A stretch of DNA of 64,000 bases from Methanobacteriota archaeon (GCA_020725925.1 DYTN01000006.1:20269-84268), one strand, 5' to 3'; positions 2,876-29,348 are shown, counted from the stretch's first letter. A program made the numbers and translations. The notes: generated by a model from the letters alone, not told the origin.

Positions 2876-2892
2876 GCTGAAGTCAAGCTACT

Positions 2893-2914
2893 AAACCCCT
2901 TTCCGTGTTTCCTT
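2893..2914 (+). terminator. Putative pyrimidine-rich archaeal terminator
   Basis: aaacccctttccgtgtttcctt lies just after the stop at 2875. A similar aaaccctttcccttttc follows the 17709..21620 gene. Confidence 0.4.
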
Positions 2915-3276
2915 ACTACTCCGGCGGGAGTCTGGGTGAGAGACTTCTGCATCAATGTCAGGATGGAAACTTCATCGAGTCAATACGCAGAGTATTTTGC
3001 TCCCCTAAGAGCCACCGATGCAGACAGCGCTCGAATCTCTCAAGATCATGTGGACAGGCTTACTATGGAGCACGAAGATGCTAAATGGGGAATCCTGCGC
3101 TCCGTTCGTACCCCAGCTCGTCCCAAGCACATAGAACGAGGACAAATAGAGAGCGATCTCTTCCATCTGGTCACTCGGACGCCTCGTCCGCAGGCCAAAT
3201 CGAAGAGCCTGCAAGTCTGATGTATACCAGCACCGTCAGTGTTCAGACTTCCATTTGAATGCGACTTTACTCAATG

Positions 3277-3300
3277 GTTCACATGCAATGGGATGCAGAC
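3277..3300 (+). repeat. 24-bp site A (putative recombination site)
   Basis: GTTCACAT-GCAATGGG-ATGCAGAC; intergenic, 44 bp before ORF 3345. Confidence 0.75.
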
Positions 3301-3344
3301 TGCGATTCACTGCATGTAGCTGATAGGCTCGTATCGGTGTATGG

Positions 3345-3647
3345 ATGATTCCCACCACGGGGGATAATCTGAACTGTGAGGACGATGATCGTCTCAAGGC
3401 CAAGTTCCTCGGCTGGCTCAAGAGGAATGGTGGAGCGAAGCACCTGACGACATGCGAGAAGAAGCTCCGTCATCTTGGTCTGGACTTGAGCTCTGCCGTA
3501 GGTGACTGGGATAAGGACAAGGTTTCGATTGTTCACAGCAGAGGGGACAAGGTGGTGTGGCTTAGGGACGTCCGCTGGGCAGATGAGTATGCAACTGCCT
3601 ACGACGTTGAGGTTTCTCATCATAGTCAATATCAAAACAAAAGTTAG
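3345..3647 (+). CDS. Hypothetical 100-aa protein, paralog of 14612..14905
   Basis: Shares 'F..WLKRN...K.L..C..KL.H..L' and 'WADE.A..Y.V.V.HH.Q' with the second copy. Confidence 0.75.
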   Translation: MIPTTGDNLNCEDDDRLKAKFLGWLKRNGGAKHLTTCEKKLRHLGLDLSSAVGDWDKDKVSIVHSRGDKVVWLRDVRWADEYATAYDVEVSHHSQYQNKS

Positions 3648-3738
3648 GACAGACAAACATAAATATCTGTAAAGCCTACTATGCTCGTGGATATGAAAGG
3701 TGACCAATGTGCCGTCTCGTGAACAAGTCCCGAGGAGG

Positions 3739-4260
3739 ATGCCGAAGTTGTCCGACTCGCCATTTGGCGGTCTTTTCGGGGATACAGCCGAGATCAGAGT
3801 GCTCCAGGAGATTGTGGCCGATCCGTTTTCGGACTACACCCATCATGATCTCATGGAACTGACTGAACTCTCGGATCCGAGTGTGAGGAGGGGCTTGCAC
3901 GTGTTGCTAAACCAGGGGATAGTTACCAACGTCTCTAATGACCGCCGGAGTCCCCTGTATCGTCCAAATCGTGCTTCGAAGAAGTTGACCGCTCTGATGT
4001 TCCTCGCGTACGCCATTCTTGACGACGAAAACGGCGAGGACTCCATGGACATGGCCGTCAAGGGCTATTGCGAGCCCAGGGCTCCTTACATCGATTTCTT
4101 CGAGATGCCCACTGCCAAGAAGGAAGGCGTCAGGGACTTCGACGGGGCGAGGGTGTACTTGTCGCAGGAAATCACGAGGGATCTCCGCGGAGTACTTCGC
4201 GAGATACTGAAGAAAGGATGCAAGGAAGGCCGGCTCGATAGGATCACAGTCTCGCGCTAG
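3739..4260 (+). CDS. Winged-helix (ArsR-like) DNA-binding protein fused to a DUF3467-like C-terminus
   Basis: RBS gaggagg precedes ATG 3739 (the ORF track extends to GTG 3700). The N-part matches 14957..15466 (PFGGLFG...VLQE.VADP...DL.ELTEL..P.VR). The C-part matches 15470..15811 (YIDF.EMP..KK.G...G.RVY.S). Confidence 0.75.
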   Translation: MPKLSDSPFGGLFGDTAEIRVLQEIVADPFSDYTHHDLMELTELSDPSVRRGLHVLLNQGIVTNVSNDRRSPLYRPNRASKKLTALMFLAYAILDDENGEDSMDMAVKGYCEPRAPYIDFFEMPTAKKEGVRDFDGARVYLSQEITRDLRGVLREILKKGCKEGRLDRITVSR

Positions 4261-4295
4261 ATGCACTGTCCGTATCTGGTGCGCTGAAGCCTAGA

Positions 4296-4319
4296 GTCCA
4301 CATGCAGCGGCATCAGAGC
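4296..4319 (+). repeat. 24-bp site B
   Basis: GTCCACAT-GCAGCGGC-ATCAGAGC; intergenic between 4260 and 4432. Confidence 0.7.
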
Positions 4320-4431
4320 CCATTAGGAGGCAGGCAGCCAGGAGAAAGCATTATCAGGGATGCCAGTGCTATGACTCTCGAATATGTCCCCTGCTGTTCA
4401 TCGCTGATGGACGGCAGGCAATTATCCACGA

Positions 4432-5091
4432 CTAGCTCTTCTTGCGCGCACGAAGCTTCTTCTCAGTCATCTCCTCGAGCTCGATCTTGATTGGAGACAC
4501 GACACCCCTCTCTTCCTCCAGCTCCTGCAGCCTCACCGCGAGATAACCCTCAAGGATCACCTCGCCACTCTGCGCCTCACACTCCTCCAGAATAGTGCGC
4601 CACTCAAGGCCTCGTTCTGCCAGACGAGCCATATCGTTGAGGTCGCCCTCTCGTTCAGTCACGCTCTTGAACAGGAAGATGTCTTCTGCAGACACGAGGT
4701 AGACTTCGAGTTTCCCATGCCTTGAATGGAGCTTGGAACGCGCGGCCATGCGAGGAGTGACCTTGATCTTTCTGCAGACTGTCTCTAGAAAGATGTCGAC
4801 ACGCATGCCCTTCTTGTCTTCCATCATGATTGCTGTTCCAAGACGACAATAGACATTGTCCTTCGGCACTACCACTCGGAAATCCTCCGTCGACAGCGCC
4901 TTGACCACCGATTCAGCCTCGTTCGCTGTGAGCAGTACCAGATCGATATCCTTGGTTGCGATCTTGGCGTTGTACAGAATCATTGCGCAGCCGCCAATTA
5001 GGTACGCCCTGACGTCGTCTGCTAGGGCTTGCCCCATTTGATTCAGAGCTCGTTCTAGATCATCCTTGCTTGACAATGCCCTATTGTTCAT
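4432..5091 (-). CDS. DUF6036-like nucleotidyltransferase (AbiEii-like toxin fold)
   Basis: Motifs 'YLIGGCAMILY...ATKDIDLV' and 'LFKSVTEREGDLND'. Overlaps the upstream HTH gene by 4 bp. Confidence 0.7.
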   Translation of the reverse strand: MNNRALSSKDDLERALNQMGQALADDVRAYLIGGCAMILYNAKIATKDIDLVLLTANEAESVVKALSTEDFRVVVPKDNVYCRLGTAIMMEDKKGMRVDIFLETVCRKIKVTPRMAARSKLHSRHGKLEVYLVSAEDIFLFKSVTEREGDLNDMARLAERGLEWRTILEECEAQSGEVILEGYLAVRLQELEEERGVVSPIKIELEEMTEKKLRARKKS

Positions 5092-6044
5092 ATGACGCCG
5101 CTCCCCAACTTGCCCTTGAGCTCGTCCAACTTCGGGAATGTGGGCGGTCGACTCACATCTGGATCTCTGAAGTAGTTGCGAATCGTCTCGAGATCGTCCT
5201 GTAGACCATACCTTGAAGCGCCTCTCCGGAGCCGGGCAAAATCTCGGGATAGGTTATTCCTGAGCCAGAGCATCAGTATCGCGGTATTCTCTCTGGTGTC
5301 CCGAGGCCTTAGAAGCATCGACTGCAGTAACACTTCATCAATTGTCCTGCGCCATTTTCCGATTGGATGGTAGTAGTACCGCCACGCCACGAAAAGTTGA
5401 ACGCCGTACTGCTCGAAGGCGGAAAACGCAGTCAGTCTGAAGTCCTCGCTCTCCTCGGCGCACTTGGTCCTGATGATGAATTCGCGACCTCGCTGCCAGA
5501 TCACCGTTGCATCGGAGCAGAACTCCTTCGCCTCAATCTGATTGGAGTACTCGTCGAACTCCTGCACGAATTCCGCAATGGGCTGGAAGCGGTCCGATAT
5601 CTCATAGATCCCCCTGGTCCGAGCACGCACCACCCCCAGTTCGCTCAACTGCTTCAGGGTCGTGTGGAGCGTTCTCGCTGAGACACCTGTGGACTGCATG
5701 AGGCTGGCTCTTGAGGATTCGGGGTATGCCGCGAGAGCCGAGAGGACGTTAAGAGATGCCAGCGAGATGATTCCTTCCAGCTTCATATGGCTGAACTCAT
5801 CAAGCACCCTCCTCAATCGTGACGCGTGCTTCTGGCGGGACATCGAGATCGAGGTCGTCATTCCCCGCCTGTCGACGTCCACCAATCCCTTGATCTTCAG
5901 CGATTTGACCAAGCGGGAGAGCTCCTGCGGGGAGATGTCCAAATCCTGAGCGACGGTCTTGGTGGCTTGGCCTTTCTCCCTGATGCTTCTCAGGACGGAG
6001 ATTTCCAAGGGTGTCAAGCGGGAGATTGCGTGGTTCATATGCAA
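5088..6044 (-). CDS. Tandem winged-helix (MarR-like) protein, putative AbiEi-type antitoxin/regulator
   Basis: Two HTH-like segments ('KTVAQDLDISPQELSRLVKSLKIKGLV', 'ARTLHTTLKQLSELGVV'). Translationally coupled to the nucleotidyltransferase. Confidence 0.65.
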   Translation of the reverse strand: MHMNHAISRLTPLEISVLRSIREKGQATKTVAQDLDISPQELSRLVKSLKIKGLVDVDRRGMTTSISMSRQKHASRLRRVLDEFSHMKLEGIISLASLNVLSALAAYPESSRASLMQSTGVSARTLHTTLKQLSELGVVRARTRGIYEISDRFQPIAEFVQEFDEYSNQIEAKEFCSDATVIWQRGREFIIRTKCAEESEDFRLTAFSAFEQYGVQLFVAWRYYYHPIGKWRRTIDEVLLQSMLLRPRDTRENTAILMLWLRNNLSRDFARLRRGASRYGLQDDLETIRNYFRDPDVSRPPTFPKLDELKGKLGSGVI

Positions 6045-6048
6045 TAAT

Positions 6049-6074
6049 TGTTAATAACTTATAAGTATTTAACA
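6049..6074 (-). promoter_or_regulatory. 26-bp near-perfect palindrome centred on TTATAA (promoter/operator of the HTH-NTase operon)
   Basis: TGTTAATAACTTATAAGTATTTAACA matches its reverse complement at 22/26 positions and lies directly upstream of the 6044/6038 start. Confidence 0.6.
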
Positions 6075-6115
6075 TTTTTTGCACATTTAGCCAGAGGATG
6101 CTCGGAGCATATGAA

Positions 6116-6172
6116 GGTGTCCAGTGGGAGTTGACACCCTATATTAGCAAATCAAGGGGAATTGTTGACACC
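6116..6172. promoter_or_regulatory. Operator-like motif GGTGTC-N11-GACACC plus a third TTGACAC half-site
   Basis: 6116..6144 matches 14418..14446 at 25/29. An extra TTGACAC lies 34 bp downstream in both copies. Confidence 0.55.
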
Positions 6173-6183
6173 TAGGTGAGGTT

Positions 6184-6207
6184 GGCTGCTTGTAGCAGGA
6201 ATTATCA
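6184..6207 (+). repeat. Integrase-proximal variant site I1 (attI-like)
   Basis: GGCTGCTT-GTAGCAGG-AATTATCA; the spacer starts 46 bp before the S-R-D codons of integrase 1, the same offset as I2. Confidence 0.5.
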
Positions 6208-6234
6208 GGACAGATCGGGGGCCTCGCTCAGGCA

Positions 6235-7215
6235 GTGTCTCGCGACTCATGGGTCCGTTGTCAGCAAGCGTACTTCGATGCGATCAGGTCCTACTACGCG
6301 CCAAGGACACTCCATTCTATGGAGCGTGGGTTCAGGACGATTCACGGGGCCTTTCTGGAGCTTCAAAATCAGGGCAAGGTACGGACTAGCAATCCGCAGA
6401 AGCTCACCAAGGATGACATCGCCGCATTCATGGAATGGATGAGAACAAGGAGGACGAGGACCGGCCTCAGTCTCGCTCACTCCACCCAGGCCAACTACAT
6501 GGACTACCTGAACGGCTTCCTTAGGTTCGAGAGTAACGGCGTGATCGACCAGATGAGGAAGCTCCACTATGTACGATTCCCTCAGAAGGTGCAGGGCGAG
6601 GTGAAGGTCCTGACGGAATCGAGACTGGAGGAGCTCCGGTTCAAGCTGCGAACGATGCCGGGGTATGAGGGGGCCGTCGCCCGGTTCATGGTGGCAATGT
6701 ACGCATACTCCGGTCTGAGGAGATCGGAGCTGCGCTTGTCGAGGCTCGAGGATCTGCGCCTCGATACCTGGACCATCTTGGTGGCCCACCCAAAGGGCGA
6801 AAGCAGCTGGGCGGCAGCGGCTCCCGCTCAGATACTGCCGCCTGCCCGCGATACTGTGCGAGAATTCCTGCGCGAGCGAAGACGGTATCTCCGGGCCTCA
6901 GGGGTATCGTCCTGCGAGGCCCTCGTCCCGAAGATATCGAATGGGGTGGCCGGCTACTGGACTGACGGGATGTGGGGCAAGGTCAAGGCAGCAGCAGTGG
7001 AGTGGTCCGGGATCAGGTTCCGCATCCAGGCGCTCCGAGCGACCTTCGGACAGATGAGCATCGATTGGGGCTGTCGGCTCGATGCGGTGTCGAGGGCGCT
7101 TCGCCACAAGACAACTCGGACCACAGAACTATACTATGCGAGGATTCGTTCCGATCATGCCTTTCGCCTGCTTGAGGAAGCATACGAGGGTGCCCACCAG
7201 GGGAGCGCCAAGTAG
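6235..7215 (+). CDS. Tyrosine recombinase / site-specific integrase (copy 1)
   Basis: Catalytic motifs SGLRRSEL (R), HPKG (K), QALRATF (QxxR in place of HxxR), LRHK (H) and ELYY (Y). Confidence 0.9.
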   Translation: MSRDSWVRCQQAYFDAIRSYYAPRTLHSMERGFRTIHGAFLELQNQGKVRTSNPQKLTKDDIAAFMEWMRTRRTRTGLSLAHSTQANYMDYLNGFLRFESNGVIDQMRKLHYVRFPQKVQGEVKVLTESRLEELRFKLRTMPGYEGAVARFMVAMYAYSGLRRSELRLSRLEDLRLDTWTILVAHPKGESSWAAAAPAQILPPARDTVREFLRERRRYLRASGVSSCEALVPKISNGVAGYWTDGMWGKVKAAAVEWSGIRFRIQALRATFGQMSIDWGCRLDAVSRALRHKTTRTTELYYARIRSDHAFRLLEEAYEGAHQGSAK

Positions 7216-7299
7216 GGCCCCCAATCTGTATGCTTTTATTTCATACGCGCTAACTAAGGCATATTGGTTTATATAGTATGTATGCTTTAGACTCTATGA

Positions 7300-8196
7300 A
7301 TGAATGAAATCATACTTGACCGTCTGCGTGATACATTGCTCACGCGAACCTCTCTCGATCGTCTTCCGGAAGATGTCTGGAAGCGATCGAGCGCCCTGAA
7401 TACTTGGGGAACCAACGCCATCGAAGGCAACACCTTGACTTGGAAGGAAGTTGAGAGACTGCTGCTTGAGGGCAAGAACATTGGGAACAGACCCATCCGC
7501 GATGTTCTCGAGACGATTCAACACGAAAGCACTTACAGGGACCTTCTACAGCGCAGGAGTCAGCCAATCACTCTGGTGACAGTGCTCGAGCTTCACGAAT
7601 CGGTGTTCAAGCGAGTGAAGGCGGATGCAGGCCAGTGGAGACGAGTCAACGTACGAATCACAGGATCGACACTCGTTCCTCCTCGGATGGAGAAGGTGGT
7701 GCCGGAGATGGAGGCCCTTCTCAGGCAATATGATAATCGGGACTTGGAAGGTGCGGAGACCTTCGACTTGGGAGCCTGGTTTCATCACGGATTCGAGTCT
7801 GTTCATCCTTTCAGCGATGGCAATGGCAGAGTCGGCAGACTTCTTCTCAACCTCCATTTCCTCAGGCGCAATTGGCCTCCCATTCATGTCCTTCCTCCGG
7901 ATAGGGAGACCTACCTGTCTGCAATGGAGAAGGGAAATCAATCCGACCTGTCGGATTTGGTGTCCTTTCTCAAGGAGCTGATGGGTCGATCCCTCCTCGA
8001 CCTGCTGGACCAAGTGGGTACTGGGGATGACGAGCTTAGGCCATTGAAGAAGCTCGCGTCGAAGGGGCCATACTCGGCGCACTACCTCAGCCTCAGGGCT
8101 GGCCAAGGGGAGCTGCCGGCGATCAAAGTCTCAGGGGATTGGCGGACCAGCGTCCGTGCGTTGCGACTATATCGGGAATTCACGGGGCGGGATTAG
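7300..8196 (+). CDS. Fic family protein with a C-terminal HTH-like tail
   Basis: Canonical HPFSDGNGRVGR motif; N-terminal 'TNAIEGNTLT'; TATA box tttatata at 7268..7275. Confidence 0.9.
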   Translation: MNEIILDRLRDTLLTRTSLDRLPEDVWKRSSALNTWGTNAIEGNTLTWKEVERLLLEGKNIGNRPIRDVLETIQHESTYRDLLQRRSQPITLVTVLELHESVFKRVKADAGQWRRVNVRITGSTLVPPRMEKVVPEMEALLRQYDNRDLEGAETFDLGAWFHHGFESVHPFSDGNGRVGRLLLNLHFLRRNWPPIHVLPPDRETYLSAMEKGNQSDLSDLVSFLKELMGRSLLDLLDQVGTGDDELRPLKKLASKGPYSAHYLSLRAGQGELPAIKVSGDWRTSVRALRLYREFTGRD

Positions 8197-8205
8197 CGAA
8201 ACGTC

Positions 8206-8257
8206 CTACCCTCACATTTCCCAGAAATTGGCCGAAACAGCGAAATTGTGAGGGTAG
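8206..8257. terminator. Inverted repeat / hairpin after the fic gene
   Basis: Perfect 11-bp arms ctaccctcaca (8206..8216) and tgtgagggtag (8247..8257). Confidence 0.4.
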
Positions 8258-8310
8258 ACCTGCGCACGTGAAGCGGCGCCCCGCTCTTTCAGAAGATATC
8301 AGTCGAGACG

Positions 8311-8334
8311 GTTTGCATGTAGGGGAATTCGAAT
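8311..8334 (+). repeat. 24-bp site C
   Basis: GTTTGCAT-GTAGGGGA-ATTCGAAT; shares 15 identical bp (tgcatgtaggggaat) with site F. Confidence 0.75.
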
Positions 8335-8444
8335 CCGCAGCTATGGCTCTCTTCCGACGCAGCCGCTTGGAGCTGGCTCCTTTGTGATATAGATTATTCG
8401 TGTAAACTATTTATATGGGTAAATCATTCCATGCTCCCGAGACA

Positions 8445-9041
8445 ATGAACACGGATGCTCTAATCGCCGACAAGCTTCTCTCCGTTGCGCGGTTGTGGGG
8501 GGAAGCAAGTGACATGATCTATTCTGGAGTCCGTAAGGATGGCGACAGGGCCTGGTTTCACATGGCAGGCTACGAGGTGCTGAACCACATCGACAATGGC
8601 ATCACAACCACCAAGAAGCTTGCAGCCGAAGTGAACAGCACGATGGCCAACATCACGCACATGACCAAGGCCTTGGAGGAGAGTGGATGCATAAGGCGGG
8701 AGGTCAACAAGACGGACAAACGTGTGTGGAATTTCCACACGACTTCGAAGGGAAGAAACCTGCTTCGCGTCGTCCGGTTGCAACATGTCGCAGCCATTGG
8801 GCACTTCTGCTCACAATTCACCGAGGATCAGAAGATGTGCGTGTTGACCTTCCTCAGCGCCATCGAAACGCATTTGGTTCAGTTTGTCCGGATACCTGAG
8901 GGCGAGCGAATGAAGATGTTGCAGCAGCACCAGAGTCCTGAGCTGGCGGCTCATTTCAGCTCCATGCAAGCCTCAGGCAAGCGAAGCGCTTCCTCCAGAC
9001 GTAGACGGCTCGTGGGGAAACGGGGAGTTGACCGTGCTTGA
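8445..9041 (+). CDS. MarR family transcriptional regulator
   Basis: 'KKLAAEVNSTMANITHMTKALEESGCIRREVNKTDKRVW..HTTSKG'. The ORF-track start 8415 falls in a TATA-like tttatat about 30 bp before ATG 8445. Confidence 0.75.
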   Translation: MNTDALIADKLLSVARLWGEASDMIYSGVRKDGDRAWFHMAGYEVLNHIDNGITTTKKLAAEVNSTMANITHMTKALEESGCIRREVNKTDKRVWNFHTTSKGRNLLRVVRLQHVAAIGHFCSQFTEDQKMCVLTFLSAIETHLVQFVRIPEGERMKMLQQHQSPELAAHFSSMQASGKRSASSRRRRLVGKRGVDRA

Positions 9042-9964
9042 TCGAACTACAGAACTTGACCAAAACCTTCGGATCACTGAGAGCCGTCGACAACCTCAGC
9101 CTGAGCGTTCCGAAGGGTCAGACTGTTGGATTTCTGGGACCTAACGGCGCTGGCAAGACAACGACCATCAGAATCATGACCAATTCGATCAGTGCGACAA
9201 GCGGTAGCGTACTCCTTAACGGGATAGACGTGAGGGCCAACCCGAAGCAAGCCTTGGGCTCTGTGGGGATAGTCGTTGAGACTCCGGAATTCTATTCCTA
9301 TCTGACTTCCCTTGAGGTTCTGGCGTATCTTGGAAGCCTCAAGGGGTTGCAGCCGAATGAAATCAAGCGGCGGAGCCAAGAAGTCCTTCATCTGGTCAAG
9401 ATGGATGAATGGAAAGACACGCGCGTCGGTGGTTTCTCGAAGGGTATGAAGCAACGGCTCGCGATTGCCCAGGCCATGCTTCACGAACCTGAGATACTCA
9501 TTCTCGACGAGCCCACGACAGGCTTGGATCCGCGAGGCATGGTAGAGGTGAGGGAGGTCATTCGTCGGCTCAAGAGGGAAGGATACACGATCTTCATGAG
9601 CTCGCACTTGTTGCCGGAGGTCCAAGAGGTCTGCGACAGCGCCGCCCTGGTCAATCATGGAAAGCTTCTGGCCTACGATTCCATTGACAATCTCGGAAAG
9701 ATGGTGAAGAACACCAGGATCGAGGTCATGACCTTTTCCGACATCCCGCCGTCCATCCTTGACAGAATCAAGGAACTTCCGCAAGTACGCTCGGTCGACC
9801 TTGTGAACGCACGCTCGGTCATAGTCACCATCGAGGATTCGCCCAGTGCTCGTGCCGATCTCCTCGGTTCGATCCAGAATGCTGGCACCCCCGTCACTGG
9901 GTTTCAGCCTATCGATCTCCCACTAGAGACGATCTACATGGATTTGGTGAAAGAGTCGAGGTGA
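9038..9964 (+). CDS. ABC transporter ATP-binding protein (CcmA/multidrug type)
   Basis: Walker A GPNGAGKTT, signature FSKGMKQR, Walker B LILDEPT, H-loop SSH. Confidence 0.95.
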   Translation: MIELQNLTKTFGSLRAVDNLSLSVPKGQTVGFLGPNGAGKTTTIRIMTNSISATSGSVLLNGIDVRANPKQALGSVGIVVETPEFYSYLTSLEVLAYLGSLKGLQPNEIKRRSQEVLHLVKMDEWKDTRVGGFSKGMKQRLAIAQAMLHEPEILILDEPTTGLDPRGMVEVREVIRRLKREGYTIFMSSHLLPEVQEVCDSAALVNHGKLLAYDSIDNLGKMVKNTRIEVMTFSDIPPSILDRIKELPQVRSVDLVNARSVIVTIEDSPSARADLLGSIQNAGTPVTGFQPIDLPLETIYMDLVKESR

Positions 9965-9970
9965 TTGTAG

Positions 9971-10804
9971 ATGACAGAGGATGTAATGAGGAGACGCCAG
10001 TTACCGTCAGACCTCGTCCAGACACTGATTGTATGGAAGTACGAATCTCTGAAGTACCTCAGGTCATACAGGCTTGTCGGTTCAATCGTGATAGTTCTCG
10101 CCATCGTCGCCCTCGTCTACGTGGGTCCCATCCTGGCCGGGAACGGCTATGGCAGCGTAGATGCTGAGGCCTTCGCGTCGAACTTCGTCCAGTTCGCTAG
10201 CATGCTCATCGTAGTCTGTGCGACGTTCTTCGGAGCTGACGCAATTGTCGGCGAATTTCAGAACAGGACTGGTCACACAGTCCTTTCGAGCGCGGTGAAC
10301 CGGCGCACAGTCTATGCGGGAAAATTCAGCGCAAGCGCGATCATGGGCATATGTGTGGTGGCACTATTCTACGCAAGCATCGGCATCCTCTCGTGGTTGA
10401 CTATCGGCAATGTCGACGACGATTTCGCGATATCGTTTGCATATGCCCTGGAGCTACTCCTGGCTGCAACAGCGGTGGCCTACCTGATCAGCGCCATCTT
10501 GAAGAGCACGACTGGCGCATCCGTGCTCAACTTCTTCCTCTTGATTCTCGTCCTTCCGATAGTCGATATGATGGTGTCCTATGCTGGCATAAGGCCCGAA
10601 GGGTCGCTCACCTTCTCAGCAGGAGTCATAGGCAGCGTGTTGGCAGATCCGTATCCAGTAGACACCACGGTGACAATGCACGGGATCACGTCATCTCGAT
10701 TCTTTCCGGATCCGGCACTTGCCGCCATCGTCCTTCTTGCATATGGATTGGCCGCTCTGGCGATGGGGATTCTCCTATTCAGGAGGAGGCAATTGCAGGG
10801 CTAG
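9971..10804 (+). CDS. ABC-2 type transporter permease
   Basis: About six hydrophobic helices and an 'IVGEFQNRT' EAA-like motif, directly after the ATPase gene. Confidence 0.85.
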   Translation: MTEDVMRRRQLPSDLVQTLIVWKYESLKYLRSYRLVGSIVIVLAIVALVYVGPILAGNGYGSVDAEAFASNFVQFASMLIVVCATFFGADAIVGEFQNRTGHTVLSSAVNRRTVYAGKFSASAIMGICVVALFYASIGILSWLTIGNVDDDFAISFAYALELLLAATAVAYLISAILKSTTGASVLNFFLLILVLPIVDMMVSYAGIRPEGSLTFSAGVIGSVLADPYPVDTTVTMHGITSSRFFPDPALAAIVLLAYGLAALAMGILLFRRRQLQG

Positions 10805-10813
10805 TGGGAAATG

Positions 10814-10837
10814 CGTCGCATGTAATGGGATATTAAC
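10814..10837 (+). repeat. 24-bp site D
   Basis: CGTCGCAT-GTAATGGG-ATATTAAC, 10 bp after the permease stop. The spacer differs from site A by one base. Confidence 0.65.
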
Positions 10838-11212
10838 CGAGCATTTCGCCGAGCGGGGGGTTCGAGGCCGTGCAGCACGTAGCAGAAAAGCAAATGTACT
10901 GCTGAGGGAATGGTACGAATGTGTACAACGCCGCTGCGACGCGAGGAATTCGATCTCGAACTGGGAACTCAGGTCTTATATCGGGCGGAAGATACTCAAG
11001 GAATGCGAATAGCTGCCGGGCTAGGTGATGTAGGTGGCGTACCCGGAACCAATCCCTGTTCTCAAGTCGAAGGAAGCCAAGGAGTTCGAGAATAGATTGG
11101 ACTCATTCAAGCTCAGCGGCGCCCAGAAAGAGTTATATCGACAAGCAATTGAGAGATTCGGCTCCAGGTAGACGATCACCGGCGAACATGGGGGCCTGAG
11201 TCCATCGCGCGG

Positions 11213-11788
11213 TTGTTCGAGCATCCCAGCGAGATCGATACCTTCAGACTCAGGTTCGAACCATTCAAATCTGACTCCCTTCAGGTGAGATCCGTTGACT
11301 GTGGAAACAGGGCTCTCAACGATTTCCTTAGGTCTGAAGAAGTCGCCAACTACGAGCGGGAACTGCTTGGAAAGACGACTCTGGTCTTCTACGAAGGAGA
11401 TCTTGCAGGATACTACACAATGAGCAGCGGATCCCTCAGATCTGAGTACCTCAAGACTTGGAGGAGCTTCACGAAGGCCGGTGAAGTTCACCTGAACGCG
11501 ATACCCTGTTTGATTGTTGGTAGACTTGCCGTTGACGGGAGATGGCAGAACAAAGGGGTTGGAAGAACAGTCATGCAGAGAATCATGATTCACGCCCTTG
11601 ATTGCTCGAGACATGCGGAGATCCGTTTAGTTGTGGTTCAGGCGAAGAAGGAAGCCACTGATTTCTACAAGAAGCTCGGGTTTGATTTCGTCGCAGAGAC
11701 CAGTGAAGAAAGGAAGAGATTCAAAGCTAGAAACACGAGGACGATGTTCTTCGATATCCTCGAGCTCAGTTACCTGAGAACCATCTAG
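11213..11788 (+). CDS. GNAT family N-acetyltransferase (AtaT/TacT toxin-like)
   Basis: 'DCGNRALNDFL', 'GYYT', 'GRLAVDGRWQNKGVG', 'FYKKLGF'. Confidence 0.85.
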   Translation: MFEHPSEIDTFRLRFEPFKSDSLQVRSVDCGNRALNDFLRSEEVANYERELLGKTTLVFYEGDLAGYYTMSSGSLRSEYLKTWRSFTKAGEVHLNAIPCLIVGRLAVDGRWQNKGVGRTVMQRIMIHALDCSRHAEIRLVVVQAKKEATDFYKKLGFDFVAETSEERKRFKARNTRTMFFDILELSYLRTI

Positions 11789-12126
11789 ACTACATCAGAA
11801 TCACTCGAGACTGGGGTCGAAAGGTCCACGATCCTCTGAGCAGGCACATCAAGTTGAAACCAGCCGACCTCTCCAAGTGGCGAGCTGATCAGAAGAATCA
11901 GAGATATACAGTATGTTTTCGAGATCCAACCTTCGGTTGAAGATTGGCCTCATCGGAAAAGTGAATCCAATCTACTTAAAGAATGGCACGTGGCTGGCCA
12001 CAGTGGCAACTCCGCGTCCTTCTGATGCGTATTGTACTATGATGCAGCATTTTCACGTCAATGTCATGCATCATAATACAACATGCTCGGCAATGCCTAC
12101 CCACGTACTGCTGAGGCTTCCTGACT

Positions 12127-12150
12127 GTCCACATGCGGTGGGATTTGAAC
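12127..12150 (+). repeat. 24-bp site E
   Basis: GTCCACAT-GCGGTGGG-ATTTGAAC; the left arm is identical to site B. Confidence 0.75.
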
Positions 12151-12247
12151 TGACGCCCGTTCATCCCCGACGACCTGACATATCCAAGACTCGGCCGCGA
12201 GAGGCTACGAGCAGCAACAAAGTATAATACACTCGGCAGGAATCTCG

Positions 12248-12562
12248 ATGCGACAAGAGAACGAGGCCCTGAGGTCGAACATGACGGAAGCTTGTAGAAC
12301 GGCTCTGCCAAAGGGCATGTCCATCCGCCGAATTGCGGCTGAGATCGAACAGGCAGCGCAGAACAAACTCTGGGTTATGAACCACATGGCGGAACTCAGA
12401 GAGAAGTATCCTGACCAGTTCGTCGCATGCAGGGATGGGAAGATTGTTGCCAGTGCGAGTTCGAGTGAGGGGGTCTTCCGCAAACTCAAGAAAAAACGGG
12501 AGGACCTGTCTCTTATCGCCATCGAATTCGTGCCGAAGGACCGTGTGATTTGGCTCCTTTGA
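12248..12562 (+). CDS. DUF5678-domain protein
   Basis: 'WVMNHMAELREKYPDQFVACRDGKIVASA...IEFVP...WLL'; TATA-like gtataat about 25 bp upstream. Confidence 0.7.
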   Translation: MRQENEALRSNMTEACRTALPKGMSIRRIAAEIEQAAQNKLWVMNHMAELREKYPDQFVACRDGKIVASASSSEGVFRKLKKKREDLSLIAIEFVPKDRVIWLL

Positions 12563-13078
12563 TTGTTCATCCGGCGCGGTGGCGGTCTCTTGAGGAAATT
12601 CCCAGCTAGGATCTCCGATGATCCTGATCAAGCTGAGGCGTTCTTCTTCACGTGCTATGTTCTGGCTCATGACCATCTCAAGGGGGCTTTGGTGAACTTC
12701 TACCTCGACACAGGTTCCTCGGACGTGATCATGGGGGAGAACGATCTCAAGAAGATTGAGATGCCTCTTGCATCATTGCCACACGCGCCCGAGCCCATCG
12801 CTGGATGGGGCGGCACTACAGTCGCGTTCCTTATGACGAACGTCTGCCTGTACCTGACTGATAGTGAGGGGAAGACCGAGGCCTTTGAGGTTCCTGAGGT
12901 GATCTGTGGGAGGAACCCCAAGCATGACAAGACGAAGACAAAGGGGATGCAAAGAATCACTGAGACCCGAAGGATTCCAATTCCCAGCGTCATTGGAAGG
13001 AGGTTTCTCCGGGACACGGGATTGATTGCCCATGTCGACGTGAAGGGCAGAGACATCTGCCTGTTCTCCCCGGGCTAG
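12563..13078 (+). CDS. Clan AA (retropepsin-like) aspartyl protease family protein
   Basis: 'FYLDTGSS' catalytic-type motif and C-terminal 'SVIGRRFL'; abuts the DUF5678 gene. Confidence 0.7.
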   Translation: MFIRRGGGLLRKFPARISDDPDQAEAFFFTCYVLAHDHLKGALVNFYLDTGSSDVIMGENDLKKIEMPLASLPHAPEPIAGWGGTTVAFLMTNVCLYLTDSEGKTEAFEVPEVICGRNPKHDKTKTKGMQRITETRRIPIPSVIGRRFLRDTGLIAHVDVKGRDICLFSPG

Positions 13079-13133
13079 GACCCCTGTAGATCGGCAGAAT
13101 CACACAGAGATTTCCGCGCGCGCATCCGAGTGG

Positions 13134-13157
13134 GTGTGCATGTAGGGGAATGCAAAC
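13134..13157 (+). repeat. 24-bp site F
   Basis: GTGTGCAT-GTAGGGGA-ATGCAAAC; spacer identical to site C, right arm identical to site G. Confidence 0.8.
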
Positions 13158-13177
13158 CAGGTTCAGCTCATGGCACA

Positions 13178-14395
13178 TCAGACCTTATCCTCGAGCATGA
13201 ATCGCCACAATGGTAAGAGCTCAACGCCATCGACGCGCCCGCTCTGGTTCCTCGTGATGACGATCTTCCGCTTGGCCTTCAGGTCCTTCAGATGAGAGAC
13301 GTCATCCAGGTTCACCCGGTCGGAGTACTTGACCTCGTAGCACGAATCTGGAAGGACGAAATCCACCTCCCTTTCGCGGACGAGACCGTAGGCGGGGTTG
13401 TAACCGCGTTCTCGCAGCTTGTTGAACACGCAGTTCTCAACTAGGCATCCGATGTTGACTGTGGGGCTCAGGATGTGCACGATGCCTGTGTCGCTCAGGT
13501 AGGCCTTCCTCGGAGCTGCCATACTCTCGGCCACCTTCCCCTTCAGCCGGATTGTGTGGATCAGGTTCGCCTCCTCGAAAGCCGAGAGGTGCTCGCGCAC
13601 AGTCTCATGCGATATGCCGAGGATCCTTGCGATCCTTCTCGGCGACAGCTTAGAGCCGCAGCTCTGTGACACTATCAGCAGTAGCTCCCTGAGGACCCGC
13701 ATGTTCCTCACACCGCGGCGGGCACCGATGTCCTTGTACAGTATGGAGTCGATGAGGGTCGTCAAGTAGCCGGGGTCGCCCGTCTTCAGATACTCTGGAA
13801 GGCCCCCTGCGCGAACGAAATCCTCGATATGTCTGACCATCAGATGGGAATCGCTTGGCTTTGTCCTGATCTTCTTCATGACGAGGTACTCTGAGAAACT
13901 GAACGGGAAGACCTCAATGAATGTCTGCCTGCCCGTCAGGAACGAACCCTTCTCGACCATAAACAACGACGAAGAGCCGGTGGCGAAGACCTTGACGTGC
14001 CCAAGATCGTATGTCGTCTTGAGCTCCTGTTCGAAACCATCCCTGAGATGGACTTCGTCGATGATTGTTGTGAATCGATCGTTGTGTTTCAGACCATGGA
14101 GCCGCCTGTAGCTGTTCAGAACGTCCAGGATTGATTCTCTTACTAGCGAGGGGTGGTCCATGGAGAAGTAGAGGATTCTTCTCGGATCCTGCCCCCTCGA
14201 AATGAGTTCTTCGATGTATTGGCGGACCAGCGTGGTCTTTCCAACTCTGCGGAGACCGGTGACGAAGACAATCTCTTTGGTTCGCTCTCGTCGACTCAGC
14301 TGCTCGAGATATCGGGTTCTTCTGATTCCCTCAGCCCTGAATGGGGATTCCCACCACGGGTTGAAGATTGCCAGGACTTCTTCCACGAAGTGCAA
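13178..14395 (-). CDS. AAA+ ATPase with DUF4143 nuclease-like domain (COG1373)
   Basis: Walker A GLRRVGKTT, Walker B IIDEVH, 'ATGSSS', 'LTGR', and C-terminal 'EVDFV...YEVKY'. Confidence 0.85.
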   Translation of the reverse strand: MHFVEEVLAIFNPWWESPFRAEGIRRTRYLEQLSRRERTKEIVFVTGLRRVGKTTLVRQYIEELISRGQDPRRILYFSMDHPSLVRESILDVLNSYRRLHGLKHNDRFTTIIDEVHLRDGFEQELKTTYDLGHVKVFATGSSSLFMVEKGSFLTGRQTFIEVFPFSFSEYLVMKKIRTKPSDSHLMVRHIEDFVRAGGLPEYLKTGDPGYLTTLIDSILYKDIGARRGVRNMRVLRELLLIVSQSCGSKLSPRRIARILGISHETVREHLSAFEEANLIHTIRLKGKVAESMAAPRKAYLSDTGIVHILSPTVNIGCLVENCVFNKLRERGYNPAYGLVREREVDFVLPDSCYEVKYSDRVNLDDVSHLKDLKAKRKIVITRNQSGRVDGVELLPLWRFMLEDKV

Positions 14396-14417
14396 AGGAC
14401 ATCAAGGAGTATATATA

Positions 14418-14474
14418 GGTGTCCACTACAAGTTGACACCCTATATAAACAAACGATGCAAGACGCTTGACACA
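14418..14474. promoter_or_regulatory. Operator-like motif (second copy) between divergent TATA boxes
   Basis: ggtgtccactacaagttgacaccctatat, with TATA-like tatata on both flanks (about 14410..14417 and 14442..14449) and an extra ttgacac at 14467. Confidence 0.55.
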
Positions 14475-14501
14475 TCTGCCATGAAGAACTCTCTTGAGCA
14501 T

Positions 14502-14525
14502 GTCTGCATGCAGCGGAATGCAAAC
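14502..14525 (+). repeat. 24-bp site G
   Basis: GTCTGCAT-GCAGCGGA-ATGCAAAC; arms are 7/8 complementary and the spacer differs from site B by one base. Confidence 0.8.
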
Positions 14526-14611
14526 ATGTGACAATGCGGCCCTTGGAGTTGTGTCTAGTTTCACTGCACGTACTGGGAAAGACTAACCAGTCAAAGTCAG
14601 TCCTCTTAGTG

Positions 14612-14905
14612 ATGGAGTCCGATGGGCCCTCCGACACTTGTGAGAGGAAAGCGTTGTTCGTCGCCTGGCTCAAACGTAACAGCGCAGGCAAGACACTACG
14701 CGTCTGTAGGAGGAAACTCAAACATCCGGACCTGGCGGAGGATACCCTGACTTCATTTCCCAGCAAGATCTGCATTCAACGACAATACGGCGAGGAGTTT
14801 GTTCGTCTTGAGGACCGCAAATGGGCGGATGAACTCGCGAAGACCTATGAGGTGAAGGTGATGCATCATGCCCAGCGCATTGGGCTGAAAAAAGATTTAC
14901 TGTAA
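14612..14905 (+). CDS. Hypothetical protein, paralog of 3345..3647
   Basis: Homology to the first copy begins after ATG 14612 (the ORF track extends to GTG 14528). Confidence 0.75.
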   Translation: MESDGPSDTCERKALFVAWLKRNSAGKTLRVCRRKLKHPDLAEDTLTSFPSKICIQRQYGEEFVRLEDRKWADELAKTYEVKVMHHAQRIGLKKDLL

Positions 14906-14956
14906 CAAAAAAGATATATATGGTAGAATGCAGGTACGGATAGAACTAGCTCAGAT

Positions 14957-15466
14957 GTGCCCAACATGAGGAACGAAAAAGTACGCTCAATTCGCGACAC
15001 GGTTGACGTGGTCGACGCCCCTTTCGGGGGCCTGTTCGGGAGTATATCACAACAGAAGGTGCTCCAGGAGCTGGTCGCCGATCCGTATTCAACCTACACT
15101 CCAAGAGACCTCACAGAGCTGACAGAGCTCACAGAGCCGACTGTGCGAGAAGCGATTGCTGCTCTGCTCCAACTTGGGATTCTCAGGAACATATCTCGGC
15201 GCAGAATGCGGCCGGTGTATCAAGTGAATCTAGACTCGAAAAGAATGGTCGCGCTGATGTTTCTCAGTTATGCAACTCTGGACGATAGGTACGGCGAGGA
15301 CCATCTGAGCGACGCCGTCAAGTGCTACTACGAGACGGTTCAGTCTTCGTGTCTTGAGCTCGAACCAGGAGAAGTGACAAGCGTGATGGGGGATTCATAC
15401 TGGAGCATTGCCAAAGAGGCGCTTTCAAGCGAGAAGGGGTATGCAGCCGCAGCGGCGGGGGTGTAG
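14957..15466 (+). CDS. Winged-helix (ArsR-like) DNA-binding protein
   Basis: 'PFGGLFG...VLQELVADP...TPRDLTELTELTEPTVREAIAALLQLGIL'; paralog of 3739..4260; TATA gatatatat upstream. Confidence 0.75.
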   Translation: MPNMRNEKVRSIRDTVDVVDAPFGGLFGSISQQKVLQELVADPYSTYTPRDLTELTELTEPTVREAIAALLQLGILRNISRRRMRPVYQVNLDSKRMVALMFLSYATLDDRYGEDHLSDAVKCYYETVQSSCLELEPGEVTSVMGDSYWSIAKEALSSEKGYAAAAAGV

Positions 15467-15469
15467 AAG

Positions 15470-15811
15470 ATGGCAAAGAGACCGAAATCCGATCTGGAGC
15501 CGTCCCCTAGACCCGGGGACTCAAGGATTTCAATAGATCTAAGGAAGATCTACGAATTTGACGCCAAGGACATAGTGCCTGAGATCAGCACGATCAGGTA
15601 CTCCAACCTGGCTTACATCCAGGTCACGCCGCGGGACCTCTACATAGATTTCCTGGAAATGCCCGGCGTGAAGAAAGATGGCCGGATGGTCGTGAGCGGG
15701 GTGAGGGTCTACATGTCTCACGTAGCAGGTCAGAGGCTCTCCCAGACTCTAGGGCACACCATTTCGGAGGTCCTCGAGAAGGGCAAGATTGAGGAACTCA
15801 AGAAGAGATAG
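15470..15811 (+). CDS. DUF3467-like protein
   Basis: 'YSNLAYIQVTPRDLYIDF...VRVYMS...QRLSQTL' fits the DUF3467 pattern as recalled. In frame with the upstream wHTH gene (TAG AAG ATG). Confidence 0.6.
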   Translation: MAKRPKSDLEPSPRPGDSRISIDLRKIYEFDAKDIVPEISTIRYSNLAYIQVTPRDLYIDFLEMPGVKKDGRMVVSGVRVYMSHVAGQRLSQTLGHTISEVLEKGKIEELKKR

Positions 15812-15907
15812 AACCGTCGAGTGGGGCTCTGCAGTTCTTACCCTTGCATTTCGACAGAATCGAGACATGGAATGGATTTGCAGGGGTAATCTAGTGCCTC
15901 AGATTGC

Positions 15908-15931
15908 TGCTACATGTAACGCAAATCCTCA
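15908..15931 (+). repeat. Integrase-proximal variant site I2 (attI-like)
   Basis: TGCTACAT-GTAACGCA-AATCCTCA; same 46-bp offset as I1, and the right arm matches I1 at 6/8. Confidence 0.5.
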
Positions 15932-15946
15932 CTATGGAACTCAGCC

Positions 15947-16972
15947 ATGGACACGGTTGTGGGTCGCGATCCATGGGTTCCATGTCAACGGGCCTATCTT
16001 GAGGCGATCAGAAGCTACTACGCTCCGAAGACCCTCCAGACAATGGAGCGAGGCTTCAGGACTTTACATAGGGCCTTCCTCGAGCTTAGGAAGGATGGCA
16101 AGGTCAGCACAACGAATCCTCAGATGTTGACTAAGGACGACATCGCGGCCTTCATGGAATGGATGAGGACGAGGAAGACGAGGCATGGCATCAGCCTTAC
16201 ACATGCCACTCAAGCCAACTACATGGACTACCTCAACGGACTTATGAGGTTCGAGAACAACGGGGTGATCGACCAGATGAGAAAGCTGCACTATGTGCGC
16301 TTCCCTCAGAAGGTGTCTGCCGAAGTCAGAGTACTGCCAGAGTCTCGAGTCGAGGAGATCCGCTCAAAGCTTAAGACAATACCGGGGTACGAAGGCGCTG
16401 TGGCACGGTTCATGGTGGCGATGTACGCCTACTCAGGTCTCAGAAGATCTGAGCTTCGCCGAGCTAGGTTCGAGGACCTTAACATCGACACCTGGACGAT
16501 TATGGTTGCTCATCCCAAGGGCGAGAGCAACTGGGCCGTCGCCTCTCCCGCACGGATATTGCACCCTGCCCGTGAGACGGTCGTCGAGTTCCTGGCAGAA
16601 CGAAATCGGTATCTGGCTGATGCCGGCATCGAGTCATGCGAGGTATTGGTGCCTAAGATCATCGATGGCGTCGCAGGATATTGGACTGACGGGATGTGGG
16701 GGAAGATCAAGGCAAAGGCTGAGAAGTGGTCAGGAATCAGGTTCCGGATCCAGACTCTGCGGGCCACTTTCGGTCAGATGTGCATCGATTGGGGCGGCCG
16801 TCCCGATGCGGTCTCTAGGGCGCTCAGACACAAGACCACACGGACGACCGAACTCTACTACGCCAGGATACGGCCGGATCATGCTTTTCGTCTTCTCGAT
16901 CAGGCTTACGATTCTGCTCATAGCGAGAAGAGGTCCCCACAAAAGCCCCTCGGTTGGGAAGAAGCCAGCTAG
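15947..16972 (+). CDS. Tyrosine recombinase / site-specific integrase (copy 2)
   Basis: Same motifs as copy 1 (SGLRRSEL, HPKG, QTLRATF, LRHK, ELYY); roughly three-quarters identical to copy 1 by eye. Confidence 0.9.
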   Translation: MDTVVGRDPWVPCQRAYLEAIRSYYAPKTLQTMERGFRTLHRAFLELRKDGKVSTTNPQMLTKDDIAAFMEWMRTRKTRHGISLTHATQANYMDYLNGLMRFENNGVIDQMRKLHYVRFPQKVSAEVRVLPESRVEEIRSKLKTIPGYEGAVARFMVAMYAYSGLRRSELRRARFEDLNIDTWTIMVAHPKGESNWAVASPARILHPARETVVEFLAERNRYLADAGIESCEVLVPKIIDGVAGYWTDGMWGKIKAKAEKWSGIRFRIQTLRATFGQMCIDWGGRPDAVSRALRHKTTRTTELYYARIRPDHAFRLLDQAYDSAHSEKRSPQKPLGWEEAS

Positions 16973-16976
16973 TCCG

Positions 16977-16999
16977 GTGTGCAGGGACCTGATTTGAAC
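16977..16999 (+). repeat. Possible variant site H immediately after integrase 2
   Basis: GTGTGCAG-GGACCTG-ATTTGAAC: left arm 7/8 to site F, right arm identical to site E, but a 7-bp divergent spacer. Confidence 0.35.
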
Positions 17000-17708
17000 C
17001 TAGATAACCGGCGGAATCGCCCTCTACTCGTTTTCCCACTAATCCAACCACTGCCTGCCGCGGGATGGTTTCTCTACAGGCAAGGAGTGTGTTGTCAGTC
17101 CATAAGGCCTGGACAATCTGGCTACACTTCAATTGAGACTTGTCTGAGATGTTCAAAACAGGAGTAGCGCATTGCGTCTTCCGCGAGTTGATTCCCTGCC
17201 GTTATCATTTGCAGGTGAAACTCCTTCGCCGACAGAGAGCCGTCTTCCCTGCTATGATGGGGACAATGTCCTTCAGTCCAGTCGCCAATTCGCATTGACA
17301 CGGTCTCCTCAGTGCGTCTGAGGAAGTGCATCTAGGTCTCAGGACGCACGCAAAGCCGGAAAGCCACTGAAACCGCTCGACTTGCAGTCAAGCGTCTCGG
17401 ACAACGACTCAGACCAGCCATGCAGTCAGCGTGCCGCCGGGGTCTTAACACAACGCAAGGGTCTCTCTTGGGAAGCATAGGACTTCTGAAGGAGGATCGC
17501 TGGATTGGACGCAATGGAAGAGACCAAGACATAAGTATCTGGATGACGATACGATAGTTGGTCCGAAGAGCAACCTCGACTCGGGGGAGTTCTGAACGTG
17601 TGGGGAGGAATCGGCTCATTGCTGGAGACTCCGCCTCAATTCAATGAGGACTAATCTCGCCAGGCAGGCGTGCTTTTCTTTGCTGATATCAGGAAGTAAG
17701 CCGGAGAT

Positions 17709-21620: not shown

Positions 21621-21647
21621 GACGGCCGAAAGCAAGTTGAACGATAG

Positions 21648-21664
21648 AAACCCTTTCCCTTTTC
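21648..21664 (+). terminator. Putative pyrimidine-rich terminator
   Basis: aaaccctttcccttttc about 28 bp after the stop. Confidence 0.4.
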
Positions 21665-22564: not shown

Positions 22565-22631
22565 AAACCCGAAACGATTGCATCTCGCAACATCCCATGT
22601 GGCGAGCCTTCATCGGGTAGTCCGCCAAGAT

Positions 22632-22922: not shown

Positions 22923-22956
22923 CCTGGGTCTCCCAACCCCAGCGGTCTCGGTATTC

Positions 22957-24692: not shown

Positions 24693-24780
24693 TCTGCTCG
24701 AATAACCAAACTCAATTCCAGCGCAGACAGGTGAACCGCACGTCCTGAACGCCCATATGGTAGTCTCAGCAGTCCCCGTT

Positions 24781-26970: not shown

Positions 26971-26975
26971 TCGCC

Positions 26976-29340: not shown

Positions 29341-29348
29341 AGCAGGGG

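Follow-up and report, generated by a model that had tools for sequence, protein, structure and literature searches.

Sites, integrases and their setting

The DNA analyzed here, referred to below as the window, is a stretch of 64,000 nucleotides from a Methanobacteriota archaeon (GCA_020725925.1, DYTN01000006.1:20269-84268). Its left part carries seven 24-bp sites (A to G), all in the same orientation on the + strand, which separate small genes and operons and are accompanied by two tyrosine recombinase genes, INT1 and INT2 (Table 1). The original prediction, made from the sequence alone, had proposed that this array is a gene-capture platform in which recombinases other than IntI act on simple sites made of two 8-bp arms around an 8-bp spacer, a reading that the comparative sequence tests presented below support. 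The positions, sequences and shared orientation given there for the seven sites were all borne out by direct inspection of the sequence and by scans. The degenerate pattern GTNNRCATGYRRNGGVAT has six matches with one mismatch or less, against 0.27 expected, a number reached in none of 100 shuffles. When both strands of the window were scanned with position weights, the seven sites scored 26-34 bits and the next unrelated position 10.6. When each site was left out in turn, it was recovered straight after the remaining six. Alignment of the sites with 60-nt flanks showed that conservation is confined to the 24 bp.

Every site is intergenic, and the gene content proposed for intervals A-B, C-D, D-E, E-F and F-G proved correct by Pfam. 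The further proposal that each interval holds a single gene or operon holds for these five and fails for B-C, which comprises three units (nucleotidyltransferase plus winged helix-turn-helix (wHTH) protein, INT1, and Fic) whose inner sites are decayed or lost. The two integrases are indeed paralogues. With seven sites, the array is the largest among 21 dereplicated arrays with at least two sites. The first 34 kb of the window have 52-56% G+C and the remainder 59-65%, which places the array within a larger island.

More than 120 homologues of the integrase were collected, all of them, where the source is named, from metagenomes or metagenome-assembled genomes (MAGs) of uncultured Thermoplasmata/Thermoplasmatota. 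All comparative data derive from metagenome assemblies and MAGs, in the form of 99 related loci (about 780 kb; 19 from GTDB genomes and 80 from JGI metagenomes; individual loci are given L numbers), with the integrase set to the + strand. These were scanned with a matrix built solely from the seven sites of the window, at a threshold of 17 bits. The scan returned 80 sites on the integrase strand versus one on the opposite strand, in 63 distinct sequence contexts, so that homologous integrases are flanked by co-oriented sites of the same kind, as the original prediction had anticipated. Array sites were present only in loci whose integrase is at least about 73% identical; none was found within +/-10 kb in loci with integrases of 38-58% identity, and those at 54-58% still adjoin tRNA-Leu. 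Of the 81 plus-strand sites, 71 are found upstream of the integrase at distances of 0-7 kb, most often 1-2 kb, and no site lies beyond 7 kb on the upstream side or beyond 4 kb on the downstream side. A background distribution of the motif had been named in advance as a sign against the proposal; the motif was absent from the rest of the window and from the outer flanks of the related loci (+/-10 kb at most). A viral or plasmid origin was considered and rejected, since IMG/VR contained a single relative of the integrase, at 28% identity, and five matches to the site pattern, all lacking the left arm, a number at chance level as estimated from the information content of the pattern.

Anatomy of the site

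The 66 distinct sites yield the consensus GTyyrCAT GyArnGGr ATkyrrAC, with about 28 bits. Left arms such as GTTCACAT, GTCTGCAT, GTTTGCAT and GTGTGCAT form a family, GTYYRCAT, to which the right arms ATGCAAAC, ATGCAGAC and ATTTGAAC also belong when read as reverse complements. The spacer, GYARNGGR, is asymmetric and occurs in a few types, e.g. GTAGGGGA, GCAATGGG and GCAGCGGA. Complementarity between the arms of a site amounts to 5.97 positions, versus 5.60 for randomly re-paired arms. Folding of the 30 nt on either side of the sites gave z-scores of -0.9 to +1.6 against shuffles, and attC-like folding was rejected on these values. Position 4 is a pyrimidine in 65 of the 66 sites, and the GTTRRRY motif needs a purine there. 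The conservation limited to 24 bp, the poor folding and the weak pairing between arms point to a core site used as double-stranded DNA and not to a folded attC, in line with the original prediction; R' and R'' boxes are also missing.

Spacers of neighboring sites tend to differ: no identical spacers were found in 36 neighboring pairs from the 21 dereplicated arrays, versus 1.2 expected, and one pair with one mismatch or less versus 4.2 expected (P about 0.06), neither difference being significant. The site nearest the integrase usually has a spacer of the GTAGGGGA type. There are thus hints of what may be spacer compatibility classes.

Cassette exchange at the sites

Comparison of cassette content and order between relatives, a check that had been suggested for the proposal, showed that order varies, that homology breaks inside sites and that occupied and empty versions of a site exist. 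In blastn searches of the window against the loci, nearly every interval recurs in other neighborhoods and homology stops at or in sites. Gene-family maps of around 55 loci are those of one cassette pool arranged in many orders, with Fic, the DUF4143 ATPase, nucleotidyltransferase plus wHTH, DUF5678 plus protease-like protein, and GNAT as recurring cassettes. Their orientation is fixed with respect to the sites, forward for Fic and reverse for the ATPase and the nucleotidyltransferase, with rare exceptions. Most arrays consist of one integrase and two to four units of 1-2.5 kb without integrase.

Breakpoints concentrate at the sites. Alignments with 88% identity or more have 460 internal ends, of which 85 fall between -20 and +45 bp of a site start, a zone that makes up 0.95% of the sequence, so that alignment ends are enriched there about 19-fold. 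For example, L052 is 99.9% identical to L051/L053 over 2831 bp starting exactly at a site, with unrelated DNA upstream, and L001 is 97% identical to L028 up to about position 18 of a site, where they diverge. Pairs of sites that share the right flank only differ mostly at positions 1-5, and pairs that share the left flank only differ mostly at positions 14-23, which sets the switch between site positions of about 6 and 15. Since arm differences track the flank that is not shared, arms move with their flanks and the exchange is central, as expected for cuts flanking the spacer.

The junctions of an insert in L041 agree with this interval. L039 has a single, empty site after the integrase, GTGTGCAG GGAGCGGG ATGCATAC. 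At the same place, L041 (1699-7041) and L042 (1685-7027) carry a 5.3-kb insert with a site at each end and a single open reading frame (ORF) of 1465 amino acids. The junctions read GTGTGCAG GGAGCCGG ACTTGCAG and GTTTGCAG GGAGCGGG ATGCATAC, the arms at the insert ends recombining as B-O-P' and P-O-B', and the right flank is 99.8% identical to that of L039. Likewise, L073 has one site where L001 has two around 2.7 kb that include Fic. Cassette identity is decoupled from integrase identity: L058 and L066 share 99.7%/98.7% identity in the DUF5678 plus protease-like cassette, up to site position 15, and 72.9% in their integrases. Some junctions have eroded, as in L069/L070 (10975-12160), where decayed sites such as CTGTGCAT GAATAGGC TGTGCACC (L069) are found; decay or disappearance of junction sites there and on both sides of INT1 would have fused units into fixed blocks.

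The integrase and its tRNA gene

The five residues listed for INT2 in Table 1 are invariant in the integrase family. The AlphaFold model (mean confidence score, pLDDT, 89) has a core-binding and a catalytic domain that span all 341 residues, and since these two domains fill the whole protein it is a simple tyrosine recombinase without an arm-binding domain. Its fold matches XerA, Tn1549 Int, VchIntIA, XerH and Cre about equally, at 13-18% identity, VchIntIA being no closer than the others, and the only sequence matches in the PDB are two archaeal XerA structures. The integrase is neither an IntI nor a XerA family member. The integron-integrase model of NCBIfam (TIGR02249) gives 27.5 bits, far from its cut-off of 265, and aligns over model positions 35-200 of 315 only, which upholds the non-IntI assignment of the original prediction; the XerA equivalog model (NF040815) gives 41.7 bits against a cut-off of 220.

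An intact tRNA-Leu(CAG) gene is present in 39 loci, just 3' of the integrase and on the opposite strand. On the integrase strand, the 3' end of the tRNA reads GTGTGCAG GGAGCCGG ATTTGAAC, with the same 8-8-8 layout as the array sites and another spacer. Array sites thus share with the tRNA site its architecture and sometimes its right arm, and differ in the spacer. Sites in L039 and L041/42 that combine a left arm and spacer of tRNA type with a right arm of cassette type (the empty-site sequence given above) are hybrids, which indicates that a single recombination system covers both the tRNA site and the array sites. Given the T-loop-like ATTTGAAC, it was suspected that all sites might be tRNA 3' fragments; this was rejected, the site adjacent to the integrase being the only one derived from the tRNA.

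In the window this site is represented by a remnant, an eighth site-like element consisting of a 23-nt copy at 16977-16999 directly after INT2 and a 10-nt piece, followed by unrelated DNA. L008 has a similar remnant after the integrase, then a 2.5-kb insert and then the true tRNA, so that repeats of tRNA type flank the insert. Neither ARAGORN nor Rfam detected RNA genes in the window, and there is no tRNA in positions 1-64000; the region from 17 to 64 kb contains no tRNA, site of tRNA type or chromosomal neighbors known from relatives.

Cassettes and neighboring genes of the window

The features of the array are listed in Table 1.

Table 1. Sites, cassettes and integrase genes of the array, in window coordinates
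Feature	Position	Strand	Details
Site A	3277..3300	+	GTTCACAT GCAATGGG ATGCAGAC; 33 bits; homology to L069/L070 begins at 3302, just past the site
Cassette A-B	3301..4295	+	Small ORF 3345-3647 (family f7) and wHTH protein 3700-4260
Site B	4296..4319	+	GTCCACAT GCAGCGGC ATCAGAGC; weaker right arm; 17.5 bits
Nucleotidyltransferase + wHTH cassette	4432..6044	-	DUF6036 nucleotidyltransferase (4432-5091) and double-wHTH MarR-like protein (5088-6044)
INT1	6235..7215	+	Tyrosine recombinase, 78% identical to INT2; catalytic residues retained
Fic/DOC cassette	7227..8310	+	Gene 7300-8196; TATA-like box about 32 nt upstream
Site C	8311..8334	+	GTTTGCAT GTAGGGGA ATTCGAAT
Cassette C-D	8415..10804	+	MarR, ABC ATPase and ABC-2 permease (Pfam)
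Site D	10814..10837	+	CGTCGCAT GTAATGGG ATATTAAC; weakest site; homology to L021 starts within it, at 10818
GNAT acetyltransferase cassette (D-E)	11213..11788	+	Pfam
Site E	12127..12150	+	GTCCACAT GCGGTGGG ATTTGAAC; right arm equal to that of the tRNA site
Cassette E-F	12248..13078	+	DUF5678 protein and aspartyl-protease-like protein (weak match)
Site F	13134..13157	+	GTGTGCAT GTAGGGGA ATGCAAAC; 34 bits
AAA_14/DUF4143 ATPase cassette (F-G)	13178..14395	-	PADLOC PDC-S01, E 1e-76
Site G	14502..14525	+	GTCTGCAT GCAGCGGA ATGCAAAC; 35 bits
Integrase-proximal module	14528..15811	+	f7-family ORF 14528-14905, wHTH 14957-15466, small ORF 15470-15811
Integrase-proximal motif	15906..15932	+	GCTGC(T)ACATGTAACGCAAATCCTCAC; site-like left arm and spacer, different right arm
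INT2	15947..16972	+	Two-domain tyrosine recombinase; R166, K191, R272, H295, Y305
tRNA-Leu(CAG) 3'-end remnant	16977..17015	+	Decayed site of tRNA type; GTGTGCAG GGACCTG ATTTGAAC, then AACCGGCGGA

Cassette A-B, a paralogue of the module upstream of INT2, is 79% identical to L069/70 11084-12046, located there downstream of the integrase. The nucleotidyltransferase and its wHTH partner, which from their sequences are possibly a toxin-antitoxin pair, lie between two sites in L003 (128/1911) as well as in L036, L046/47 and L064; in the window the right-hand site of this cassette is missing. No recognizable site was found on either side of INT1 (6045-6234, 7216-7299). The Fic protein matches PADLOC PDC-S04/SoFic, and its cassette is bounded by two sites in L040, L001 and L049-53. 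Cassette C-D had no counterpart in any other locus when compared by blastn with the 99 related loci. The GNAT cassette is 84% identical to L021 3711-4683, placed there between a site and the integrase, and cassette E-F is also found in L038, L065, L020 and L051-53. The ATPase cassette lies between two sites in L021 and L038. In L040 (about 3049-4394) its orientation is the reverse of that in all other loci, and of the sites at its two ends one is inverted and the other direct, which suggests occasional inversion between oppositely oriented sites.

The integrase-proximal module is conserved upstream of the integrase in L001, L028, L033, L064 and L073; it behaves as a separable unit, since in L002 other genes and a site part it from the integrase. 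The motif that follows it, yGCTGCATGTARCnnrAATCCTCAC, precedes the integrase start by 15-85 nt in at least 12 distinct loci (among them L003, L022, L023, L025, L028, L031, L036, L040 and L058-60). It might mark an ancestral boundary of the integrase unit, act as an attI-like site or serve as an operator for autoregulation. Cassette genes occur on both strands, and TATA-like boxes precede their starts by 25-35 nt; because of both features they are seemingly expressed on their own. Judging by their families, the cargo would consist largely of toxin-like or candidate defense genes.

Just to the left of site A (134-2875), in low-G+C DNA, the window encodes a 913-amino acid protein with a GH130-like domain and an FG-GAP repeat. 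A search with this ORF for DNA upstream of the window found nothing, and one with a 100-amino acid ORF gave only a 1.5-kb contig identical to the window. This contig (L106; Logan SRR13164374, 1492 bp) is 100% identical to positions 2182-3673, spanning site A, and the corresponding run should hold reads of the organism from which the window derives.

On the other side, the low-G+C island extends 17 kb past INT2 (17000-34000). It contains an ORF of 1303 amino acids without Pfam match (17709-21620), a truncated DUF6036 nucleotidyltransferase (22632-23006) and a second AAA_14/DUF4143 ATPase (22957-24315), and also encodes EamA, VIT1, an alcohol dehydrogenase (ADH) and an aldo-keto reductase. Several pieces of it are homologous to cassettes of other loci, and no sites of cassette or tRNA type are detectable in it. 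The region could represent an array that has decayed, or DNA inserted at the tRNA site with its far end beyond the window. Giant ORFs just past the integrase are present in L073 (1230 amino acids) as well as in the window, and the 5.3-kb insert of L041/42 carries another; such large cargo may form a class of its own that relies on the spacer of tRNA type.

Proposed mechanism and alternative explanations

We consider it probable, at roughly 80%, that these loci are chromosomal cassette platforms worked by a simple tyrosine recombinase of the Cre/Xer type on 24-bp double-strand sites. The footprints of such a process are seen in the polarity of the sites, their link with one integrase clade, the breakpoints in sites, the segregation of arms, the occupied/empty pairs and the independence of cassette identity from integrase identity. 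From the sequences we infer that INT1 and INT2 would be the enzymes, circles the intermediates, and the positions flanking the spacer those of cleavage. One integrase monomer would bind each of the inverted 8-bp arms, and the asymmetric 8-bp spacer, where strand exchange would take place, would give the site its polarity. Recombination between any two direct sites would release a circle with one hybrid site, and circles could re-enter at any site with a compatible spacer, the tRNA site included. In repeated rounds, cassettes of 1-2.5 kb without integrase would pile up on the upstream side of the integrase gene, and now and then between it and the tRNA, with the 3' end of tRNA-Leu(CAG) as the anchor of the platform. 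Decay of sites would fix the older cassettes, as may have occurred around INT1 and in L069/70.

Several points weigh against this proposal. The link between integrase and sites is one of association in sequence data, from which the circles and the activity of the integrase are deduced, and arms of 8 bp are short for a tyrosine recombinase site. Because spacers of neighboring sites differ, many site pairs may recombine poorly, and since sites are decayed or missing at the flanks of INT1 and in L069/70, part of the array may be frozen. At its right-hand end, the array of the window has neither the tRNA nor the chromosomal neighbors seen in relatives, which would put it in a different or rearranged context. 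Mis-joins of the assemblies at repeats are conceivable, although 24 bp is little for such a repeat and the same junctions emerged from independent assemblies of several samples (L049-L053, L028/29, L031/32, L041/42).

Part of the evidence could also be accounted for by ordinary integrative elements that inserted in tandem at the tRNA gene and later lost their own integrases, so that the repeats would be old attachment (att) scars and no cassette would be mobile now. Tandem integration at tRNA genes is well known, both in archaea (PMC8371274) and in tycheposon islands, and the adjacency of integrase and tRNA-Leu(CAG) in 39 loci, the two integrase copies in the window and the decay of several sites would all fit. 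We nevertheless regard this as improbable: most arrays combine a single integrase with two to four small units devoid of one, and repeated loss of the integrase from every unit is not parsimonious. The supposed scars are, moreover, not partial tRNAs but a distinct 24-bp site with another spacer. In addition, one cassette without integrase is 99% identical where the integrases are 73% identical, and near-identical strains differ by a single cassette at a site.

A role for the integrase at the tRNA site only, with the array sites used by a housekeeping recombinase of the host such as XerA, in the way of the pdif sites of Acinetobacter, would be in keeping with the Xer-like fold of the enzyme and with the precedent of site-flanked modules moved by host Xer proteins. 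This seems less probable still, given that the sites occur only beside one integrase clade (at least about 73% identity) and on the integrase strand, that the hybrids between tRNA-type and cassette-type sites place both in one recombination system, and that pdif orientation alternates whereas the sites here are all direct. As for a regulatory or terminator-like intergenic motif with no part in recombination, to which the intergenic location and partly palindromic nature of the 24-mer might lead, its chances are minimal: the flanking genes lie on both strands, yet the sites keep to the orientation of the integrase; a regulatory role would not account for the homology breakpoints, for arms that segregate with their flanks or for sites duplicated around inserts; and the motif is absent from the remainder of the window.

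Going back to the cassette platform, the original prediction had left the choice between an integron-like system and tandem accretion of circles at one att. The platform itself stands, but these alternatives are not really distinct here, since the array would be, on the sequence evidence, an accretion of small circles without integrase at a family of interchangeable sites. A broader proposal, whose chances we see as only slightly better than even, is that an uncultured Thermoplasmata clade independently evolved a working analogue of the integron, in which a dedicated Xer-like integrase descended from a tRNA-Leu-targeting ancestor captures, stacks, shuffles and exchanges promoter-bearing single-gene cassettes by way of lox-like 24-bp sites, spacers act as compatibility classes that determine which cassettes recombine and stabilize neighboring ones, and the array serves as a defense and toxin bank. 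The array would also be a concrete route by which genes come and go in an archaeal group of which little is known. The commonest cassettes match candidate anti-virus defense families, and the array may help to find new defense genes in archaea, while the compact recombinase, with its 24-bp site and naturally diverse spacers, could serve as a source of orthogonal recombination tools.

Comparison with known systems

Integrons are the textbook gene-capture device, built on one integrase family and folded single-strand attC sites; if the proposal is true, cassette platforms would be a convergent solution and not a one-off invention. The likeness lies in a tyrosine recombinase beside a co-oriented array of mostly single-gene cassettes bounded by sites, whose content varies between relatives, in the shuffling of cassettes and their exchange between arrays, and in a toxin-like or defense cargo such as that of sedentary chromosomal integrons. 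Of four integron criteria, the co-oriented variable array beside an integrase is the one that the loci display. The integrase is not an IntI and lacks the domain specific to that family. attC sites are 57-141 nt long, have R'', L'', L' and R' boxes and recombine as a folded single strand, whereas the sites described here are 24 bp long, lack both conserved flanks and R'/R'' boxes and fold no better than shuffles, and their arms segregate with the flanks, as in double-strand exchange. Integron cassettes, mostly promoterless and in one orientation, are read from one promoter, Pc, unlike these, which lie on both strands with what appear to be TATA-like promoters of their own, and the platform has a tRNA gene as its anchor. 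Archaeal integrons have been reported with canonical IntI and attC, in a study that makes no mention of Thermoplasmata (Ghaly et al., 2022; PMC9668308).

With Cre/loxP, Flp/FRT and Xer/dif, the system shares a two-domain recombinase without arm-binding domain, inverted arms around an asymmetric 8-bp spacer, central exchange, and excision or integration between direct repeats. It departs from them in arms of only about 8 bp and in its many non-identical sites with several spacer types, which build a cassette array rather than resolve dimers, as well as, with respect to archaeal XerA/dif, in an integrase that is not a XerA equivalog and in multiple clustered sites instead of a single chromosomal dif. 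A 2021 review of archaeal tyrosine recombinases does not contain the word 'cassette' (PMC8371274), and no description of such an array was found in the open-access literature searched, in agreement with the original prediction, which had not recognized the platform as described.

Islands at tRNA genes, such as tycheposons and archaeal integrated elements, resemble the platform in that a tyrosine recombinase targets the 3' end of a tRNA and successive insertions push older units outward, giving rise to a variable island. Tycheposons of Prochlorococcus range from several kb to more than 10 kb, typically carry their own integration and replication modules, and leave partial tRNAs between them (10.1101/2020.12.28.424599). 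In contrast, the units found here are gene-sized and devoid of integrase, and the 24-bp site that parts them is no fragment of a tRNA. Tandem stacking at one chromosomal att is also a trait of the composite staphylococcal cassette chromosome (SCC) islands at rlmH, where cassettes without recombinase accumulate and are moved in trans; these differ in their serine recombinases (Ccr), their much larger cassettes and their bacterial host. The pdif modules of Acinetobacter depend on host XerC/XerD, have alternating site orientation and are located on plasmids. They are reported to be small accessory modules bounded by short Xer-type sites and shuffled between replicons (PMC6449649, PMC13141974), and they are the nearest known cassettes on simple double-strand sites, from which the array is set apart by its dedicated adjacent integrase, its direct sites (80 to 1) and its chromosomal location beside a tRNA gene.

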